DNA from: a virus
Lineage: Duplodnaviria > Heunggongvirae > Uroviricota > Caudoviricetes
IMG/VR virus record: IMGVR_UViG_2660238600_000004
DNA length: 6,870 nucleotides
Direction: 5' to 3' (one strand)
Each line of letters begins with the position of its first letter. Positions within the stretch are counted from its first letter, which is position 1. A program made the translations under genes and the position numbers. Positions 1 through 6,870 of this stretch are shown here, piece after piece. The notes under the pieces are model-generated. The model had not been told where the DNA came from, searched no databases, and worked only from the letters and a program-made list of their open reading frames with translations.

Positions 1-1284
1 TTACTTCTTCGCCTCTGCAACCACTTTACTACCCACGCCGCGGTTATTGTATTCCCACATGCGGTTGTAGTTAGTGTCATTCAGATTGCGCTGTATTTCG
101 TCGTTATCATCTACGCTGCCGGTATTACCCGCAAACGGACGATTAGAGATCACCGCATCGGCCCACGGTTTAGCCGTGTTAAAACCTTCGTTGATGGCGC
201 TATCACGGATCACCACCTGACCGTTGGTATTGGCATCAACATCCAGCGAGCGGCCCAGTTGCGCCACACCATCACCGAAAGCATTGAAACGGCTGTTTAC
301 GGCGAGGAAACCGTAGTAAATGTTGGACAGCGTAGCCGGTGCAAACACATACGCTTCTTGCTGAGTACGTGAGTTCACCACGCGGAATTCGGTGTTATCG
401 AACACCACTGCGCCGCGACCAGAAACGATATCCACATCCCCTTCAATGTAGCTGTTGGTCACCAGCGTACGCGGCTGACGATTCGTTTCCAGACGGTTCT
501 GCACACCGCTGTTGGTGACAAAGAAGGTGTTCTGACGACCGAGAATGTTAACGTTGTTAATCTGTACCTGGTCACCATCAGTACGCAGTGCCACCGCCGG
601 ATGGTTACCTGCATCTACGCTATCGCCCAGCGTGTTTTCGATGGTCAGATTTTGCAGTTGCAGGCCATTGTTTTGTGACCAGAAGACCGCAGAGCAGAGA
701 ACACCGATACTGTCGCTGCGTTTGCTCTGGCAGCTATCGTACATATACCACGCTGGTTTACCTGGCATATATTTGCCGCGCGGGTTGACGTCGTGACGCC
801 AGTCGGCAGGGCTCATGCCACCATCAAGGGAAAGCCCAATCTTCACATCAATCGGTTTTTCACCTGTACCGTACAGAGTAATTCCACCCGGAGCGGCAGG
901 GACATATACCGTTCCCTGATACTCACCAGGCATCACGGCAATATACTGGCGCTTGTTGGTACGCTTGATAATTGCCGCATCTACCGCCGCCTGAATCGTG
1001 GTATGCGTTACACCTTGAGTGCCCGCCGGGCCGACAACAAAGTCAGGTTGCGCAGGCAGGGTAATCGGGGAAGGATTCCACGCTGCAGCACCTGGTGTCA
1101 GGGATGCAAAATAGTGTTGAGCATCGAAATTCTGCGCTTCTTTTGCCGACAGAATCGGGCGAGAAGAGGTACCAGGCGCGGTTTGATCAGAAGGACGTTG
1201 ATCGGGCGGGGTTGAGCTACAGGCGGTCAGCGTCACGCCAAAAGCCAATGCCAGCGCCAGACGGGAAACTGAAAATGTGTTCAC
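1..1284 (-). CDS. ybhC: YbhC-like putative lipoprotein (pectinesterase-family / acyl-CoA thioesterase-like), host chromosomal gene flanking attL
   Basis: Complete 427-aa ORF with GTG start at 1284 and stop at 1-3. N-terminus MNTFSVSRLALALAFGVTLTAC has a signal peptide and lipobox-like LTAC. Position immediately beside the lambda att core matches the known ybhC-attB-ybhB arrangement in E. coli. Identity is recalled, not searched. Confidence 0.8.
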   Translation of the reverse strand: MNTFSVSRLALALAFGVTLTACSSTPPDQRPSDQTAPGTSSRPILSAKEAQNFDAQHYFASLTPGAAAWNPSPITLPAQPDFVVGPAGTQGVTHTTIQAAVDAAIIKRTNKRQYIAVMPGEYQGTVYVPAAPGGITLYGTGEKPIDVKIGLSLDGGMSPADWRHDVNPRGKYMPGKPAWYMYDSCQSKRSDSIGVLCSAVFWSQNNGLQLQNLTIENTLGDSVDAGNHPAVALRTDGDQVQINNVNILGRQNTFFVTNSGVQNRLETNRQPRTLVTNSYIEGDVDIVSGRGAVVFDNTEFRVVNSRTQQEAYVFAPATLSNIYYGFLAVNSRFNAFGDGVAQLGRSLDVDANTNGQVVIRDSAINEGFNTAKPWADAVISNRPFAGNTGSVDDNDEIQRNLNDTNYNRMWEYNNRGVGSKVVAEAKK

Positions 1285-1330: not shown

Positions 1331-1345
1331 GCTTTTTTATACTAA
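1331..1345. other. attL core: 15-bp lambda att common core (overlap region) GCTTTTTTATACTAA
   Basis: Exact 15-mer GCTTTTTTATACTAA seen at 1331-1345. It is preceded by bacterial-side sequence (tgaagcctgc) and followed by phage P'-arm sequence (gttggcattataaaaaagcattgcttatcaatttgttgcaacgaacaggtcactatcagtcaaaataaaatcatt), i.e. a B-O-P' arrangement. Confidence 0.9.
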
Positions 1346-1365
1346 GTTGGCATTATAAAAAAGCA

Positions 1366-1421
1366 TTGCTTATCAATTTGTTGCAACGAACAGGTCACTA
1401 TCAGTCAAAATAAAATCATTA
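1366..1421. promoter_or_regulatory. attL P' arm protein-binding sites: IHF H'-like site (tatcaatttgttg, about 1371-1383) and three tandem Int arm-type sites (aggtcactat / cagtcaaaat / aaaatcatta, about 1392-1421)
   Basis: Sequence matches the IHF consensus WATCAANNNNTTR and the Int arm-type consensus C/AAGTCACTAT known for the lambda P' arm. Sites lie between the core and the int stop codon (1419-1421). Confidence 0.7.
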
Positions 1422-2489
1422 TTTGATTTCAATTTTGTCCCACTCCCTGCCTCTGTCATCACGATACTGTGATGCCATGGTGTCCGACTTATGCCCGAGA
1501 AGATGTTGAGCAAACTTATCGCTTATCTGCTTCTCATAGAGTCTTGCAGACAAACTGCGCAACTCGTGAAAGGTAGGCGGATCCCCTTCGAAGGAAAGAC
1601 CTGATGCTTTTCGTGCGCGCATAAAATACCTTGATACTGTGCCGGATGAAAGCGGTTCGCGACGAGTAGATGCAATTATGGTTTCTCCGCCAAGAATCTC
1701 TTTGCATTTATCAAGTGTTTCCTTCATTGATATTCCGAGAGCATCAACATGCAATGCTGTTGGGATGGCAATTTTTACGCCTGTTTTGCTTTGCTCGACA
1801 TAAAGATATCCATCTACGATATCAGACCACTTCATTTCGCATAAATCACCAACTCGCTGCCCGGTAACAACAGCCAGTTCCATTGCAAGTCTAAGCCAAC
1901 ATGGTGATGATTCTGCTGCTTGATAAATTTTCAGGTATTCGTCAGCCGTAAGTCTTGATCTCCTTACCTCTGATTTTGCAGCGCGAGTGGCTGCGACCGG
2001 GTTTGTTGTTATATGGCCTTCAGCTATAGCCTCTCGGAATGCATCGCTCAGTGTTGATCTGATTAACTTGGCTGATGCCGCCTTTCCCTCGTCTATGTAT
2101 CCATTGAGCATTGCCGCAATTTCTTTTGTGGTGATGTCTTCAAGTGGAGCATCTGGCAGACCCCTCCTTATTGCTTTAATTTTGCTCATGTAATTTATGA
2201 GTGTCTTCTGCTTGATTCCTCTGCTGGCCAGGATTTTTTCGTAGCGATCAAGCCATGAATGTAACGTAACGGAATTATCACTGTTGATTCTCGCTGTCAG
2301 AGGCTTGTGTTTGTGTCCTGAAAATAACTCAATGTTGGCCTGTATAGCTTCAGTGATTGCGATTCGCCTGTCTCGGCCTAATCCAAACTCTTTACCCGTC
2401 CTTGGGTCCCTGTAGCAGTAATATCCATTGTTTCTTATATAAAGGTTAGGGGGTAAATCCCGGCGCTCATGACTTCGCCTTCTTCCCAT
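1419..2489 (-). CDS. int: Lambda-type integrase (tyrosine site-specific recombinase), 356 aa, apparently intact
   Basis: Complete ORF MGRRRSHERRDLPPNLYIRNNGYYCYRDPRTGKEF...REWDKIEIK, which I recognise as lambda Int. It sits directly beside attL and its start overlaps the xis 3' end, as in lambda. Confidence 0.95.
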   Translation of the reverse strand: MGRRRSHERRDLPPNLYIRNNGYYCYRDPRTGKEFGLGRDRRIAITEAIQANIELFSGHKHKPLTARINSDNSVTLHSWLDRYEKILASRGIKQKTLINYMSKIKAIRRGLPDAPLEDITTKEIAAMLNGYIDEGKAASAKLIRSTLSDAFREAIAEGHITTNPVAATRAAKSEVRRSRLTADEYLKIYQAAESSPCWLRLAMELAVVTGQRVGDLCEMKWSDIVDGYLYVEQSKTGVKIAIPTALHVDALGISMKETLDKCKEILGGETIIASTRREPLSSGTVSRYFMRARKASGLSFEGDPPTFHELRSLSARLYEKQISDKFAQHLLGHKSDTMASQYRDDRGREWDKIEIK

Positions 2490-2685
2490 TTCTGATCCTC
2501 TTCAAAAGGCTACCTGTTACTGGTCGATTTAAGTCAACCTTTACCGCTGATTCGTGGAACAGATACTCTCTTCCATCCTTAACCGGAGGAGGGAATATCC
2601 TGCACTCGCGTACCCATCGACGAACTGTTTCAAGGCTTCTTGGGCGTCGCTGGCGTGCGTTCCACTCCTGAAGTGTCAAGTACAT
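2467..2685 (-). CDS. xis: Lambda-type excisionase Xis, 72 aa
   Basis: ORF MYLTLQEWNARQRRPRSLETVRRWVRECRIFPPPVKDGREYLFHESAVKVDLNRPVTGSLLKRIRNGKKAKS matches lambda Xis. It overlaps the int start by 23 nt. Confidence 0.95.
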   Translation of the reverse strand: MYLTLQEWNARQRRPRSLETVRRWVRECRIFPPPVKDGREYLFHESAVKVDLNRPVTGSLLKRIRNGKKAKS

Positions 2686-2711
2686 CGCAAAGTCTCCGCA
2701 ATTACACGCAA
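2663..2711 (-). promoter_or_regulatory. pI-like int promoter region with a CII-type TTGC-N6-TTGC activator site (minus-strand TTGCGTGTAATTGC at 2698-2711)
   Basis: The minus strand reads TTGCGTGTAATTGCGGAGACTTTGCGATGTACTTGACAC. The TTGC-N6-TTGC motif lies just upstream of the xis ATG, so a transcript from here would begin inside xis and express int alone, as described for lambda pI. The exact -10 and start site are not determined. Confidence 0.55.
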
Positions 2712-2724
2712 GAAAAAACCGCCA

Positions 2725-2892
2725 TCAGGCGGCTTGGTGTTCTTTCAGTTCTTCAATTCGAATATTGGTTACGTCTGCATGTGCTATCTGCGCCCACAGC
2801 ATCCAGTGGTCATAGCAGTCGCTGATGTTCTCGGCTTCGATAACTCTGTTGAATGGTTCTCCATTCCATTCACCTGTGACTCGGAAGTGCAT
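2725..2892 (-). CDS. Small hypothetical protein, 55 aa (lambda orf55-like, position-conserved ORF downstream of xis)
   Basis: ORF MHFRVTGEWNGEPFNRVIEAENISDCYDHWMLWAQIAHADVTNIRIEELKEHQAA, not in the supplied track because it is under 60 aa. A GGAG motif lies 7-10 nt upstream of the ATG. Its size and spacing from xis match the orf55 I recall in lambda. Confidence 0.55.
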   Translation of the reverse strand: MHFRVTGEWNGEPFNRVIEAENISDCYDHWMLWAQIAHADVTNIRIEELKEHQAA

Positions 2893-2930
2893 TTATCATC
2901 TCCATAAAACAAAACCCGCCGTAGCGAGTT

Positions 2931-2962
2931 CAGATAAAAGAAATCCTCGTCAGTGCGAGGAT
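2931..2962 (-). terminator. Candidate intrinsic terminator for leftward transcription (7-bp stem atcctcg/cgaggat, 6-nt loop, then a U-rich tract on the minus strand)
   Basis: Inverted repeat at 2943-2949 / 2956-2962. On the minus strand it is followed by TTTCTTTTATCTG (plus 2931-2942). No folding energy was computed. Confidence 0.35.
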
Positions 2963-3134
2963 GCTGTTCATTGCTGCTATACACTTTTTTGCTCTCAACG
3001 TAAGCGGTAGCCCATTCTGTTGGGTTGGTGCAGTTGCTTTTAGGAAATGCTATTTACCCCTTAAATGTCGGCTGAAAGAGCTAAAATCCATGCAAAAAAT
3101 TTACGCAATTTTGTGTATTATTGTGCAGTAAGTA

Positions 3135-3737
3135 ATGAGCTATTTTCTGCGCAAAAAATGGATGGTAAATTTGTCCGGGTCAGGAAAAATTTTATGGGCG
3201 CTAAACATGAAAAAAGATTCGTATCCTTATTTGATTTGCATGACAGTTTCAGGGCTGATCTTTATTTTCCTTTTCTTCTGGTGGCGGGCAGATATCTACA
3301 GGGTCACGTTTCTTAATCAGAGTATATCCCACTATTACATTCTGTTTAGCATGGGAATAGCTTTTCTGTTATCTCTGTTTTGGGTTAAGAAGGGGATAGT
3401 AAAACAAAGCGGCTGGAAGAGTCTGTCAGCATACATTAAGGTTTATGCAGGGATGTGCATATTTGCTGGATTTTTTCTGATTATACCCCTTACGACACTA
3501 ACTTATTTTTTGCCTGGAGAGACATCGTCTTATGTTGCACCGTATCGGTATACTTCCGGTAGTTCAAAAAGTTGTTCTGGAGCTGAGGTGGATGACCCCG
3601 ATCTACATGAGAATATTCGCATTTGCTATCCGTATGGCAATTATGAGTACGATAATATTATCTATGTTGAAAAGAAAATTAATATATTAGGTGCGGTAGT
3701 GACATATGCACAGACCGCGCGTGATGATACTGAATGA
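3135..3737 (+). CDS. Hypothetical membrane protein, 200 aa: three predicted N-terminal TM helices plus an ~75-aa C-terminal soluble domain; AT-rich moron on the strand opposite the early-left operon
   Basis: Complete ORF. Hydrophobic stretches PYLICMTVSGLIFIFLFFWW, SHYYILFSMGIAFLLSLFWV and YIKVYAGMCIFAGFFLIIPLTTLTYFL. Base composition is visibly more AT-rich than the flanking lambda-like DNA. A hairpin terminator follows. Start codon is uncertain (in-frame ATGs at 3135, 3162 and 3207, none with a strong SD). I recognise no family. Confidence 0.6.
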   Translation: MSYFLRKKWMVNLSGSGKILWALNMKKDSYPYLICMTVSGLIFIFLFFWWRADIYRVTFLNQSISHYYILFSMGIAFLLSLFWVKKGIVKQSGWKSLSAYIKVYAGMCIFAGFFLIIPLTTLTYFLPGETSSYVAPYRYTSGSSKSCSGAEVDDPDLHENIRICYPYGNYEYDNIIYVEKKINILGAVVTYAQTARDDTE

Positions 3738-3771
3738 TATAGTATATAGCGGGCAAGTTTTAGTTAATTTA

Positions 3772-3806
3772 TCGAGGTAATATAATTTACCTCGACTCGT
3801 TTGTTC
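3772..3806 (+). terminator. Candidate intrinsic terminator downstream of the membrane-protein gene (9-bp stem tcgaggtaa/ttacctcga, loop tataat, T-rich tail)
   Basis: Perfect inverted repeat at 3772-3780 / 3787-3795, followed by ctcgtttgttctgg. It lies 35 nt after the stop codon at 3735-3737. Confidence 0.45.
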
Positions 3807-3947
3807 TGGTATTAATATTTCGCTTTACGACCGATTTTTATCTGATGATATCATGCGGTTTTCATATACTGACTTACTGTCTTTTCTCCGTTAGCGATTT
3901 TCTCCTGCTCAGCGATGATTTTATCTTTGGCTTCTAGTTAATTTCGC

Positions 3948-4169
3948 TCACTTCGAACCTCTCTGTTTACTGATAAGCTCCAGATCTTGCTGGCAACTGG
4001 CACAAGTCCGACAACCCTGAACGGCCAGTCGTCTTCGTTCATCTATCGGATCGCCACACTCACAACAATGAGTGGCAGATATAGCCTGGTGGTTCAGGCG
4101 GCGCATTTTTATTGCTGTGTTGCGCTGTAATTCTTCAATTTCTGATGCTGAATCAATTATGTCTGCCAT
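3948..4169 (-). CDS. TraR/DksA-family C4 zinc-finger protein, 73 aa (lambdoid TraR-like, Orf73-type)
   Basis: ORF MADIIDSASEIEELQRNTAIKMRRLNHQAISATHCCECGDPIDERRRLAVQGCRTCASCQQDLELISKQRGSK. The CxxC-N17-CxxC spacing and length are typical of F-plasmid TraR and phage TraR-like RNA-polymerase-binding proteins. Confidence 0.8.
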   Translation of the reverse strand: MADIIDSASEIEELQRNTAIKMRRLNHQAISATHCCECGDPIDERRRLAVQGCRTCASCQQDLELISKQRGSK

Positions 4170-4220
4170 CTTTCATTAATCCCTGAATTGTTGGTTAATA
4201 CGCTTGAGGGTGAATGCGAA

Positions 4221-4246
4221 TAATAAAAAAGGAGCCTGTAGCTCCC
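4221..4246 (-). terminator. Candidate short intrinsic terminator on the minus strand (GGAGC-5 nt-GCTCC followed by TTTTTTTATT on the minus strand)
   Basis: Inverted repeat at 4231-4235 / 4241-4245 with a run of seven A at 4224-4230 on the plus strand. The stem is only 5 bp, so this is weak. Confidence 0.3.
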
Positions 4247-4267
4247 TGATGATTTTGCTTTTCATGT

Positions 4268-4483
4268 TCACCGTTCCTTAAAGACGCCGTTCAACATGCC
4301 GATCGCCAGGCTTAAATGAGTCGGTGTGAATCCCATCAGCGTTACCGTTTCGCGGTGCTTCTTTAGTACGCTACGGCAAATGTCATCGACGTTTTTATCC
4401 GGAAACTGCTGTCTGGCTTTTTTGATTTCAGAATTAGCCTGACGGGCAATGCTGCGAAGGGCGTTTTCTTGCTGAGGTGTCAT
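4268..4483 (-). CDS. Hypothetical small protein, 71 aa (alternative upstream start at 4549 gives 93 aa)
   Basis: ORF MTPQQENALRSIARQANSEIKKARQQFPDKNVDDICRSVLKKHRETVTLMGFTPTHLSLAIGMLNGVFKER. The ATG at 4481-4483 overlaps the stop of the upstream micro-ORF (ATGA), suggesting translational coupling. No family recognised. Confidence 0.45.
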   Translation of the reverse strand: MTPQQENALRSIARQANSEIKKARQQFPDKNVDDICRSVLKKHRETVTLMGFTPTHLSLAIGMLNGVFKER

Positions 4484-4563
4484 TGAACAAGCCCCATGTC
4501 GGCAAGCATAAGCACACAGAATATGAAGCCCGCTGCCAGAAAAATGCATTCAGTGGTTGTCAT
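4480..4563 (-). CDS. Candidate hydrophobic micro-ORF, 27 aa (MTTTECIFLAAGFIFCVLMLADMGLVQ), translationally coupled on both sides
   Basis: Its ATG at 4561-4563 overlaps the orf63-like stop (ATGA) and its TGA overlaps the next ATG (ATGA). The peptide has one predicted TM-like segment. It is below the ORF-track size cutoff. It could instead be a coupling artefact, and its frame overlaps the N-terminal extension of the 93-aa version of the next ORF. Confidence 0.3.
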   Translation of the reverse strand: MTTTECIFLAAGFIFCVLMLADMGLVQ

Positions 4564-4751
4564 ACCTGGTCTCTCTCATCTGCTTCTGCTTTCGCCACCA
4601 TCATTTCCAGCTTTTGTGAAAGGGATGCGGCTAACGTATGAAATTCTTCGTCTGTTTCTACTGGTATTGGCACAAACCTGACTCCAATTTGAGCGAGGCT
4701 ATGTGCCATCTCGATACTCGTTCTTAACTCAACGGGAGATGCTTTGTGCAT
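4560..4751 (-). CDS. Small hypothetical protein, 63 aa (lambda orf63-like by size and position)
   Basis: [66 protein letters not shown]. Its length (192 nt with stop) and 28-nt overlap with the upstream ORF match the orf63/orf60a arrangement I recall for lambda. Confidence 0.55.
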   Translation of the reverse strand: MHKASPVELRTSIEMAHSLAQIGVRFVPIPVETDEEFHTLAASLSQKLEMMVAKAEADERDQV

Positions 4752-4906
4752 ACAGCTCCCCGTTTATTATTTATCTCCTCAGCCAGCCGCTGTGCTTTCA
4801 GGGGATTTCTGATAACAGAAAGGCCGGGAAATACCCAGCCTCGCTTTGTAATGGAGTAGACGAAAGTGATCGCGCCTACCCGGATATTATCGTGAGGATG
4901 CGTCAT
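4724..4906 (-). CDS. Small hypothetical protein, 60 aa (lambda orf60a-like); start chosen at the ATG overlapping the exo stop
   Basis: [63 protein letters not shown]. The track begins it two codons earlier (4912). The ATG at 4904-4906 forms an ATGA overlap with the exo stop, matching the 4-nt exo/orf60a overlap in lambda. Confidence 0.5.
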
Positions 4907-5583
4907 CGCCATTGCTCCCCAAATACAAAACCAATTTCAGCCAGTGCCTCGTCCATTTTTTCGATGAACTCCGGCACCATCTCGTCAAAACTCGCCATGT
5001 AATTTTCATCCCGCTCAACCACGACATAATGCAGGCCTTCACGCTTCATTCGTGGGTCATAGTTGGCAAAGTACCAGGCATCTTTTCGCGTCACCCACAT
5101 GCTGTACTGCACCTGGGCCATGTAAGCCGACTTTATGGCCTCGAAACCACCGAGCCGGAATTTCATGAAATCCCGGGAGGTAAACGGGCATTTCAGCTCA
5201 AGGCCATTGCCGTCACTGCATAAACCATCGGGAGAGCAGGCGGTGCGCATACTTTCGTCGCGATAGATGATCGGGGATTCAATAACATTTACGCCGGAAG
5301 TGAACTCAAACAGGGTTCTGGCGTCGTTCTCGTACTGTTTTCCCCAGGCCAGCGCTTTAGCGTTAACTTCCGGAGCCACACCGGTGCAAACCTCAGCCAG
5401 CAGGGTGTGGAAGTAGGACATTTTCATGTCAGGCCACTTCTTTCCTGATCGGGGCTTTGCTATCACGTTGTGAACTTCTGAAGCGGTGATGACGCCGAGC
5501 CGTAATTTGTGCCATGCATCATCCCCCTGTTCGACAGCTCTCACGTCGATCCCGGTACGCTGCAGGATAATGTCCGGTGTCAT
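4903..5583 (-). CDS. exo: Lambda exonuclease (Red-alpha, 5'-3' dsDNA exonuclease), 226 aa, intact
   Basis: [71 protein letters not shown]...[10 protein letters not shown], recognised as lambda Exo. Its start overlaps the bet stop in ATGA fashion. Confidence 0.95.
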
Positions 5584-5774
5584 GCTGCCACCTTCTGCTC
5601 AGTGGCTTTCTGTTTCAGGAATCCAAGAGCTTTCACTGCTTCGGCCTGTGTCAGTTCTGACGATGCGCGAATGTCGCGGCGAAATATCTGGGAACAGAGC
5701 GGCAATAAGTCGTCATCCCATGTTTTATCCAGGGCAATCAGCAGAGTGTTAATCTCCTGCATGGTTTCATCGTT
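5580..5774 (-). pseudogene. bet: 3' fragment of bet (Red-beta), C-terminal ~64 codons only; N-terminal ~200 codons absent
   Basis: The minus frame reads ...[64 protein letters not shown], matching the lambda Bet C-terminus as I recall it. Immediately upstream the frame reads SYPAQPS after a stop at 5796-5798, instead of the Bet sequence (..ERDITPV..). Homology therefore ends near 5775. Confidence 0.8.
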
Positions 5775-5797: not shown

Positions 5798-5980
5798 ATG
5801 GCTAGGTTGGCTGAAATGGAAAAGGAACTCAGTGAGGCAAAACAGGCTGTCATTCTCAACGCACCACGCCACCAGAAACTGAAGGAAATTAGTGAAGGTA
5901 TTGTGTCGATGTTTCGTGTGGACCCAGATCTGGCTGGTCCATTGATGGCGATGGTTACTACCATGCTGGGGGCGATATGA
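5798..5980 (+). CDS. Hypothetical small protein, 60 aa (MARLAEMEKELSEAKQAVILNAPRHQKLKEISEGIVSMFRVDPDLAGPLMAMVTTMLGAI); possibly a remnant of a gene upstream of O
   Basis: ORF with AGGA 7 nt upstream of the ATG at 5798. The track starts it at a TTG at 5777. It lies exactly at the bet truncation joint. No HTH or known family recognised. Confidence 0.3.
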   Translation: MARLAEMEKELSEAKQAVILNAPRHQKLKEISEGIVSMFRVDPDLAGPLMAMVTTMLGAI

Positions 5981-6066
5981 CAGGTTCAGAAATGGCGAAA
6001 GCCGGTCTGCTGGAACAGAACCGACTTTCAGGTGCAAATCGTAACACACTCATTGCGGGAGGAATT

Positions 6067-6870
6067 ATGGCAAACACTGCTGAGATATTCAATTTTCCAG
6101 TGCCGGATGCGGCACAAAAGGAGCCGCGCGTGGCAGATCTCGATGATGGTTATACGCGCATTGCAAATGAGTTGCTGGAAGCTGTGATGCTGGCCGGATT
6201 AACACAGCACCAGCTTCTGGTCTTCCTAGCTGTCATGCGCAAAACATATGGCTTTAATAAAAAACTGGATTGGGTGAGCAACGAGCAACTGTCCGAATTG
6301 ACCGGGATATTGCCGCACAAGTGTTCTGCTGCAAAAAGTGTTCTGGTAAAGCGTGGGATTCTTATTCAGAGCGGGCGGAATACCGGCATTAATAATGTGG
6401 TCAGTGAATGGTCAACATTACCCGAATCAGGTAAGAAAAATAAAGTTTACCTGAAAGAGGTAAATTTACCTGAATCAGGTAAAAAAAGTTTACCCAAATC
6501 AGGTAAAGACGTTTACCCGAATCAGGTAAACACAAAAGACAAACTAACAAAAGACAATATAAAACCTTTTTCGTCCGAGAATTCTGGCGAATCCTCTGAC
6601 CAGCCAGAAAACGACCTTCCTGTGGAGAAACCAGATGCTGCAATTCAGAGCGGCAGCAGGTGGGGGACAGCAGAAGACCTGACCGCCGCAGAGTGGATGT
6701 TTGACATGGTGAAGACCATCGCGCCATCAGCCAGAAAACCGAATTTTGCAGGGTGGGCTATACCGCCAGCTTGGTTGATAAAAAATGGTTGCGACTGGCA
6801 GCAAGGAGGAGTCATGGCTGATTTGAGAAAAGCAGCGCGTGGTCGGGAATGCCAGGTAAGAATCCCTGGC
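6067..6870 (+). CDS. Lambdoid O-family replication initiator (N-terminal iteron-binding domain plus internal origin); 3' end not defined in window
   Basis: GGGAGGA SD at 6056-6062 and ATG at 6067. Translation MANTAEIFNFPVPDAAQKEPRVADLDDGYTRIANELLEAVMLAGLTQHQLLVFLAVMRKTYGFNKKLDWVSNEQLSELTG...VSEW parallels the lambda O N-terminus (MTNTAKILNF...VADLDDGYARLSNMLLEA...LRKTYGWNKPMD...SQLSEIT...ISEW). The frame stays open to the window end. Sequence after about 6755 appears to derive from ninE/ybcO-like DNA, so the native 3' end is probably missing. Confidence 0.8.
   Translation, partial: MANTAEIFNFPVPDAAQKEPRVADLDDGYTRIANELLEAVMLAGLTQHQLLVFLAVMRKTYGFNKKLDWVSNEQLSELTGILPHKCSAAKSVLVKRGILIQSGRNTGINNVVSEWSTLPESGKKNKVYLKEVNLPESGKKSLPKSGKDVYPNQVNTKDKLTKDNIKPFSSENSGESSDQPENDLPVEKPDAAIQSGSRWGTAEDLTAAEWMFDMVKTIAPSARKPNFAGWAIPPAWLIKNGCDWQQGGVMADLRKAARGRECQVRIPG
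6417..6530. repeat. Replication-origin iterons: five ~19-bp direct repeats, consensus TTTACCYRAATCAGGTAAA, each an internal dyad (TTTACC..GGTAAA)
   Basis: Copies at about 6417-6435, 6446-6464, 6465-6483, 6489-6507 and 6512-6530, all inside the O-like coding frame. They encode a repeated LPESGKK-like peptide. Layout is as in ori-lambda but the repeat sequence differs. Confidence 0.8.
6531..6590. other. AT-rich tract immediately after the iterons (candidate DNA-unwinding region of the origin)
   Basis: cacaaaagacaaactaacaaaagacaatataaaacctttttcgtcc is strongly A/T-rich. Its position relative to the iterons mirrors ori-lambda. Confidence 0.6.
6756..6821 (+). pseudogene. ninE-like 3' fragment (reads ..GYTASLVDKKWLRLAARRSHG-stop); no in-frame start codon upstream
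   Basis: The frame ending in TGA at 6819-6821 gives a C-terminus I recall from prophage NinE proteins. The same frame has a stop at 6702-6704 and no ATG after it. The stop overlaps the next ATG (ATGGCTGA). Identity is from memory. Confidence 0.4.
6814..6870 (+). CDS. YbcO-like (DUF1364, cysteine-rich putative nuclease of the nin region) protein, 5' end only; continues beyond window
   Basis: Strong SD AAGGAGGA at 6802-6809 and ATG at 6814. MADLRKAARGRECQVRIPG matches the N-terminus I recall for E. coli DLP12 YbcO. Confidence 0.5.
   Translation, partial: MADLRKAARGRECQVRIPG

Follow-up and report, generated by a model that had tools for sequence, protein, structure and literature searches.

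A membrane-protein cassette in place of lambda ea8.5 and ea22, shared by lambdoid and P2-like prophages: a candidate exclusion module

The stretch of DNA analysed here (hereafter the window; 6,870 nucleotides, IMG/VR record IMGVR_UViG_2660238600_000004) begins in the host gene ybhC, crosses the lambda attachment site and continues in a lambdoid prophage, in which a gene for a small membrane protein occupies the place of lambda ea8.5 and ea22. An earlier note, made from the letters alone, had described int, xis, an orf55-like open reading frame (ORF) and the orf63/orf60a/exo block as collinear with lambda, and ea8.5 and ea22 as replaced by foreign DNA. Comparison by blastn agrees with this collinearity at 97–98% identity and extends it to orf73: window positions 1331–2962 match lambda 27724–29355 (98.2% identity) and positions 3936–5755 match lambda 30380–32200 (97.0%), while no lambda match was found by blastn for positions 2963–3935. 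Homology thus breaks at 2962/2963 and returns at 3935/3936, and 973 bp stand for lambda 29356–30379. Since the lambda annotation places ea8.5 at 29374–29655 and ea22 at 29847–30395, the interval that has been exchanged comprises ea8.5 together with ea22 minus its first codons; the locus is not that of canonical lambda, and the note had described lambda correctly. The replacement has left short remnants of ea22 on the minus strand at 3851–3951, and to that extent it is less complete than had been claimed. As also anticipated, the locus is richer in AT than its surroundings, with a GC content of 38.1% for the segment 2963–3935 and 39.0% for the gene, compared to 46.0% for the left flank and 49.2% for the right flank. 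Substituted DNA relative to close relatives and a deviant base composition, two marks of a moron in the Juhala/Hendrix definition as given in PMC3594210, are both found here.

The slot itself, between orf55 and orf73, is that of ea8.5 and ea22, and an Ea22-like relic remains in it. However, the lambda genes encode soluble early proteins and are read leftward, whereas the gene in the window encodes a membrane protein on the opposite strand, and its product has no significant match to Ea8.5 or Ea22 (tblastn, E of at least 0.24).

The rightward ORF at 3135–3737 lies between the leftward orf55-like ORF (2725–2892) and the leftward orf73 (3948–4169), and had been taken as one gene for 200 amino acids. 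ORF and strand stand, but the gene is shorter. All diverged homologues, those of Salmonella, Klebsiella, Enterobacter and Cedecea among them, start at the equivalent of M25; in the DNA alignment the Salmonella copies have no upstream in-frame ATG; codon 9 is replaced by TAG in the E. coli copy borne by the KplE1 prophage, for which RefSeq gives 176 amino acids; and a conserved promoter-like motif lies within the 72 nt of the 5′ extension. We therefore rejected the 200-amino-acid model and place the gene at 3207–3737 (plus strand, 176 amino acids), on homologue alignments, the ratio of non-synonymous to synonymous substitution rates (dN/dS), an AlphaFold2 model, and hydropathy and charge. The 24-codon extension (3135–3206, plus strand) is missing from all diverged homologues and is regarded as non-coding. 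With a dN/dS of 0.09–0.16 relative to the 434, KplE1 and Salmonella alleles, the 176-amino-acid gene is under strong purifying selection. A 56-amino-acid ORF upstream of it (2961–3131, plus strand), named as a second membrane protein in the phage 434 and mEp332 records, is probably not a gene: in the KplE1 copy, which has an intact 176-amino-acid gene, it is frameshifted and interrupted by several stops, it falls outside the cassette common to P2-like copies, and scans of family libraries gave no match to it. It was accordingly rejected as a second gene.

The protein was modelled by AlphaFold2 from an alignment of 25 sequences, with a predicted local distance difference test (pLDDT) score of 87 for the whole chain; when the C-terminal domain was modelled by itself, the score rose to 91.5. 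The three transmembrane helices and the C-terminal domain proposed from sequence reappear in this model, with helices at residues ~5–29, 38–61 and 70–101 (numbering of the 176-amino-acid protein) that coincide with the hydropathy peaks, a short strand at 34–36 in the first loop, and a five-stranded beta-barrel of 75 residues at ~102–171. Among the closest known folds to the latter are small extracytoplasmic OB-like beta-barrels (DUF1093, 3npp; BcR97A, 2k5q) and the OB domains of cold-shock proteins and EF-P. Two lysines stand at the N-terminus, the loop between helices 2 and 3 (loop 2) has four K/R and no acidic residue, and the charges of the C-terminal domain sum to −6; by the positive-inside rule the N-terminus would be inside and the C-terminus outside, and the barrel would probably be periplasmic. 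The barrel domain is also the best-conserved part of the protein, with 84% identity to the E. coli P2-type allele against 78% overall, and 55% to an Enterobacter chromosomal copy against 42% overall. Near-invariant across the family, members near 30% identity included, are G104, C123, G125, I137, C140, K156 and G162. Because C123 and C140 flank one beta-hairpin of the C-terminal domain, a periplasmic disulfide between them is the natural reading, and a probable one.

Around the gene, candidate signals for its expression were found on both sides. An extended −10-like element, TGgTAAATT (3163–3171, plus strand), lies 35 nt 5′ of the conserved ATG and is a candidate promoter; the pattern TGnTAA(A/T/G)TT is kept in the copies of lambdoid phages, of Salmonella P2-like prophages and of the Cedecea chromosome, always with the same spacing to the ATG. 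Further upstream, two conserved direct repeats, TTGTGTATTA and TTGTGCAG, are spaced by 10 bp (3111–3128, plus strand). The repeat ATTGTGCA is conserved in the Salmonella P2-like copies, which have two to three of them (three in locus L005, ~5895–5930). The phage 434 record labels these repeats a CII site. The pattern TTGYN6TTGY is found three times in the window against 1.86 expected, which is not above chance, and the motif is also kept in P2-like phages, which are not known to have CII. A CII-dependent promoter was therefore rejected, and we treat the repeats as a regulatory repeat that is possibly the site of a regulator. Downstream of the gene, the earlier note had seen a clean hairpin terminator at 3772–3806. 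There is indeed a hairpin at 3772–3795 (plus strand; 9-bp stem, 6-nt loop, centroid energy −12.9 kcal/mol), but the T run that follows it, CTCGTTTGTT, is interrupted, and the fold z-score of the 93 nt around it is only −1.5, so that “clean” is too strong a word for what looks like a terminator-like end. In a P2-like copy of 76% DNA identity the hairpin is kept, with one compensatory change from A-T to G-C, one wobble and one mismatch. An Rfam scan of the window returned no credible RNA.

These elements recur together outside lambdoid phages. When window positions 2893–4000 were compared by blastn with two E. coli P2-like loci (L046 and L043), the alignment covered positions 3070–3827 at 76% DNA identity, i.e. 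from ~137 nt 5′ of the ATG to ~30 nt past the hairpin; Salmonella P2-like copies align from 3074 or 3111 to 3705. The extent of the E. coli alignment indicates that promoter-like element, ORF and hairpin move together, as a mobile cassette (3070–3827, plus strand), between lambdoid and P2-like prophages. Beside one E. coli P2-like copy there is moreover an ead/Ea22-like pseudogene fragment (L046, 4835–5205), and in the window ead/Ea22-like relics were recognised from their translations and from alignment with this pseudogene (3851–3951, minus strand). The first relic reads GTG-S-E-I-N-stop (3934–3951, minus strand), lambda Ea22 beginning with VSEINSQ; the second is an out-of-frame coiled-coil fragment of 28 codons (3851–3937, minus strand), and this is the part that aligns with the pseudogene. 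Because an Ea22-like fragment accompanies both copies, and given their 76% DNA identity, we infer that the cassette has passed directly from one of these phage types to the other. In the simplest history it would at first have had an Ea22-like gene as its neighbour in the exo-xis region of a lambdoid phage; a copy that took along part of this gene would then have entered the P2 locus, and later loss of most of ea22 would have given the 434-type arrangement.

The 1,055-bp segment containing the cassette (2893–3947) is 99.8% identical in phage mEp332, 98.9% in 2B8 and 98.8% in classical phage 434. About one in six complete E. coli genomes (905 of 5,426) contain 80% or more of it, O157:H7 genomes with the segment at the ybhC site among them. 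The earlier suggestion that the protein may be undescribed applies to its function and not to its sequence, which is known as CPT_434_36 (gp36) of phage 434, a “putative membrane protein”, and as ECs_0804 in prophage Sp3 of O157:H7 Sakai; records annotate the gene only as hypothetical or putative membrane protein, and of the morons of phage 434 the genome paper says only that they differ from lambda (PMC9119081). The family is small and confined to the Enterobacterales, with 74 clusters at 90% identity and, among 1.84 billion proteins, 57 representatives at 50% identity, all of ~170 amino acids and stand-alone. Genera represented in it include Citrobacter, Pantoea, Erwinia, Serratia, Enterobacter, Klebsiella, Kosakonia, Phytobacter and Pseudescherichia. 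The gene is intact in prophages that have otherwise decayed, namely in that of the window, in Sakai Sp3 (where int and bet are pseudogenes) and in the KplE1 remnant.

A role in the life cycle of the phage itself, such as modulation of lysogenisation or induction, is highly improbable, and so is the view that the ORF has no function and is decaying. The location in the exo-xis region, genes of which reportedly influence lysogenisation, would suit the former, and a 5′-truncated form of one allele, described below, is common. However, the gene lies on the strand opposite to the early operon, it also occurs in P2-like phages, which are differently regulated, and on chromosomes, and it is both under strong purifying selection and intact in decayed prophages. 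Foreign composition, candidate signals of its own, an orientation antisense to the early operon and retention during prophage decay fit a moron, and the 0.76-kb cassette may be regarded as such. The foreign, opposite-strand membrane-protein module of the earlier note is supported by the substitution, the GC content, the strand, the promoter-like element and the hairpin, the length of its gene excepted.

Six diverged alleles carried by prophages were examined, and all occupy one place: each is in a P2-like prophage, in the interval bounded by the portal gene gpQ and the replication gene gpA, and is co-oriented with gpQ. Identity to the window protein is 78% for the E. coli allele, 70% and 58% for two Salmonella alleles, 57% for that of Enterobacter hormaechei, 55% for that of Klebsiella michiganensis and 52% for an allele from an unidentified host. 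Neighbours in this locus include a 790-amino-acid NB-ARC/STAND NTPase, HicAB, a YafO toxin and ParM/StbA. Rousset et al. described the gpQ-gpA locus as an anti-phage hotspot that holds old and tin in P2 (PMC9122126). The recurrence of the gene there makes a defence or lysogenic-conversion role more plausible, as judged from genomic position. Alleles of the cassette gene are found in exactly the locus of old, tin and the other P2 cargo, in P2-like prophages from five genera; the window copy differs in being lambdoid, and it matches no PADLOC model. In E. coli the 78% allele also has a 5′-truncated form (P0127/P0129; 112 amino acids, starting with GTG for V65), which keeps helix 3 and the periplasmic domain and is present on at least 1,000 contigs; it may be either a working variant with a single membrane anchor or a widespread pseudogene.

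Searches of protein families did not connect the protein to a characterised one. Scans against Pfam, NCBIfam and PADLOC with the protein and 25 family members gave nothing above noise; PADLOC-DB 2.0 gave no match up to an E of 1 for the protein and its neighbours; and a profile search of PDB sequences gave a best E of only 0.37. Homology to P22 SieA was rejected (hhalign probability 0.1%), and the Pfam scan, insofar as Pfam has models for T4 Imm, SieB and YebO/gp15, gave no match above threshold to these exclusion families either. None of these searches thus disclosed a well-characterised protein of unrelated function, an outcome that would have spoken against the proposal. The sole PHROG match is phrog_1416, of unknown function, a 90-position profile that covers the C-terminal half (E 7e-51, residues 113–200 in the numbering of the 200-codon ORF). 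By homology over its full length, its three transmembrane helices and its C-terminal domain with a CSGA...IC motif the protein belongs to this unnamed family of the Enterobacterales. A paper on the small RNA svsR proved not to be relevant, as it deals with a different locus inside cI.

What the product may do was weighed against known inner-membrane exclusion proteins. HK97 gp15 is a moron-encoded superinfection exclusion protein of the inner membrane; its homologues are found only in Enterobacteriaceae, mostly as chromosomal genes of the YebO family, many of them outside prophages (PMC3594210). The likeness lies in a lambdoid moron with its own expression signals (candidate ones here), a small inner-membrane product and many chromosomal homologues. 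By sequence the two are unrelated, no YebO or other Pfam match being obtained for 25 family members, and while gp15 was reported as a small inner-membrane protein and is encoded in the tail operon, the cassette gene lies in the exo-xis region and its product combines three helices with a 75-residue beta-barrel. P22 SieA is likewise an inner-membrane protein, and it blocks DNA entry; it is a prophage-expressed, multi-helix protein of ~165 amino acids with its own promoter and an orientation opposite to its neighbours (PMC10883804). The cassette protein resembles it in these traits, its own promoter being a candidate one and its expression from the prophage presumed. The SieA sequence has no C-terminal beta-barrel domain, whereas the cassette protein is predicted to have one.

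The exact replacement of ea8.5/ea22, the movement as a unit, the hotspot alleles, retention in decaying prophages, the low dN/dS, the presence in many E. coli genomes, the charge pattern and cysteine pair and the precedent of gp15 together suggest a prophage-expressed envelope protein that would most likely serve superinfection exclusion, a reading that we favour, tentatively and with less than even confidence. Since the cassette runs against the leftward early operon and has its own promoter-like element, its product could be made under repression or, as in the window, after deletion of the immunity region. It would be an inner-membrane protein with a cytoplasmic N-terminus, three helices and the barrel in the periplasm, the barrel being probably locked by the C123-C140 disulfide and packed on the strand, itself conserved, that lies in the first periplasmic loop. 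Acting on the periplasmic side of the inner membrane, the barrel might bind a conserved envelope component or an incoming tail tip, and the DNA of another phage would be stopped from crossing the membrane, as with HK97 gp15 and P22 SieA. Because the conserved domain would be periplasmic and the gene recurs in prophage accessory slots and in the hotspot, an exclusion factor acting at genome entry is the simplest reading. In a more specific form, possible but held with still more reserve, the protein would found a new family of prophage-encoded exclusion or defence proteins that act as single genes, recruited by lambdoid and P2-like phages from a chromosomal envelope gene of the Enterobacterales; its periplasmic, disulfide-bonded OB-like barrel would block a conserved step of genome entry, and it would contribute to the phage resistance of ~17% of E. 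coli, O157:H7 included.

Several observations weigh against exclusion. The protein resembles no known exclusion or defence family by sequence or profile; literature searches that used accessions, locus tags, phage names and topics yielded no functional study of the gene; the candidate promoter consists of a conserved motif that a generic promoter scan did not call, and the T tract behind the hairpin is weak. That the domain predicted to be periplasmic is the most conserved part is more in keeping with a conserved partner in the host than with an arms race against phage proteins, which vary. The P2 hotspot also houses non-defence cargo, such as partition systems and cytolethal distending toxin (PMC9122126). 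Finally, chromosomal homologues with 42–55% identity to the window protein are found in several Enterobacterales, and the conserved synteny of those at 42–46% identity suggests an envelope function unrelated to phages. Those of Enterobacter (42–46% identity) lie in conserved synteny at six loci (L007, L029–L031, L033 and L039; gene at 6001–6510), always convergent with a gene for a 570-amino-acid HAMP-GGDEF diguanylate cyclase and with a GGDEF-EAL gene near by; Klebsiella, Pantoea, Erwinia, Serratia, Kosakonia and Phytobacter carry chromosomal copies in contexts of their own for each genus, and the Cedecea copy adjoins an integrase fragment.

The product could accordingly be an envelope accessory factor, captured from an Enterobacterales chromosome because it benefits the host in a manner unrelated to phages; it might, for example, modulate a membrane transporter, a sensor kinase or a diguanylate cyclase, or serve stress tolerance. 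We consider this, the main rival of exclusion, somewhat unlikely, although it has the syntenic homologues of the six Enterobacter loci and of the other six genera on its side, as well as the periplasmic position of the most conserved region, the virulence and maintenance cargo of the P2 hotspot (PMC9122126) and the virulence-factor genes among the morons of phage 434 (PMC9119081). No partner gene is conserved across the chromosomal contexts, so that no pathway can be named; all six diverged prophage alleles examined belong to the P2 defence hotspot, and that of the 434 type occupies an accessory slot of lambdoid phages; and gp15 with its YebO relatives illustrates that chromosomal homologues are compatible with exclusion (PMC3594210). 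The GGDEF neighbourhood could be either coincidence or a functional link. In Phytobacter and Kosakonia the copies lie 1.6 kb from a gene for a 980-amino-acid protein that clusters by BLAST with the Enterobacter GGDEF proteins.

The arguments from hotspot and moron that favour exclusion apply equally to abortive infection, in which infection would trigger depolarisation or permeabilisation of the inner membrane and the cell would die before the phage cycle ends. RexB-like and other membrane effectors act in this way, and a single-gene protein with three helices would suit the role. We nevertheless judge it unlikely, as no PADLOC model was matched, there is no cytoplasmic sensing domain (loop 2 has only ~17 residues), the conserved part of the protein is predicted to be periplasmic, and stable chromosomal orthologues speak against a toxic effector. 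The same topology recalls immunity proteins, that of colicin M being membrane-anchored and periplasmic with an analogous architecture. A small membrane-anchored protein with a disulfide-type cysteine pair in its periplasmic domain, spread patchily over mobile elements and chromosomes as is typical of orphan immunity genes, might protect against a bacteriocin acting in the periplasm or membrane or against a contact-dependent toxin. However, there was no adjacent toxin gene in any context examined and no match to a Pfam immunity family, and we take orphan immunity to be very unlikely.

The gene has thus been carried by a founding model phage, 434, and by the Sp3/CP-933K-type prophage of O157:H7, yet it has no name, Pfam family or phenotype. 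Its sequence has long been known and is widely distributed. Movement of the unit between the lambdoid exo-xis region and the P2 hotspot makes the product a well-defined candidate exclusion protein. Should it protect, the few known inner-membrane exclusion proteins would be joined by one with a periplasm-facing mechanism, and the survival of the gene in decayed prophages would be explained; otherwise the chromosomal homologues, with their conserved synteny, would point to an unrecognised envelope function of the Enterobacterales.

In the remainder of the window, ybhC (1–1284, minus strand) forms the left end and is followed, past the attachment site, by leftward int (1419–2489) and xis (2467–2685) and then by the orf55-like ORF. 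Two terminator-like hairpins (2912–2962, minus strand) lie at the left border of the substitution, where lambda homology stops at 2962, and t-L4 of the phage 434 record (M60848) maps to 2936–2966. To the right of the substitution, orf73 (minus strand) encodes a protein of the TraR/DksA C4 zinc-finger type (Pfam PF01258, phrog_54); it matches lambda 30392–30613, where NC_001416 has no annotation. A phrog_303 ORF (4268–4549), orf63/DUF1382 (4560–4751), orf60a, located between orf63 and exo, and exo (4903–5583) follow, all leftward. Of bet only the last 60 codons are present (5580–5762, minus strand), and its end joins, at ~5763–5772, the 3′ part of a gene with a cII/YdaT domain, after which comes the replication gene O (plus strand). 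Intact relatives have bet-gam-kil-S24 repressor-cro in that gap, ~3.1 kb. The window prophage is a deletion derivative in which the DNA between a point within bet and a point within the cII/YdaT-like gene is missing, and it therefore has neither a repressor nor the PL region.

Two further observations concern relatives of the gene. In the Klebsiella gpQ-gpA hotspot (L018–L020), the genes for the 790-amino-acid NB-ARC/STAND NTPase and for a 279-amino-acid protein lie beside the homologue (3251–5623 and 2281–3120, respectively). This module had no match in PADLOC and the 279-amino-acid protein no domain match, and together they may form an uncatalogued Avs-like system. The E. coli gene also recurs, at 99% identity, on a 3.5-kb contig (JARKOR010000073.1, L024) of a metagenome-assembled genome assigned to ‘Candidatus Nanosynbacter’, where it is almost certainly a binning contaminant.

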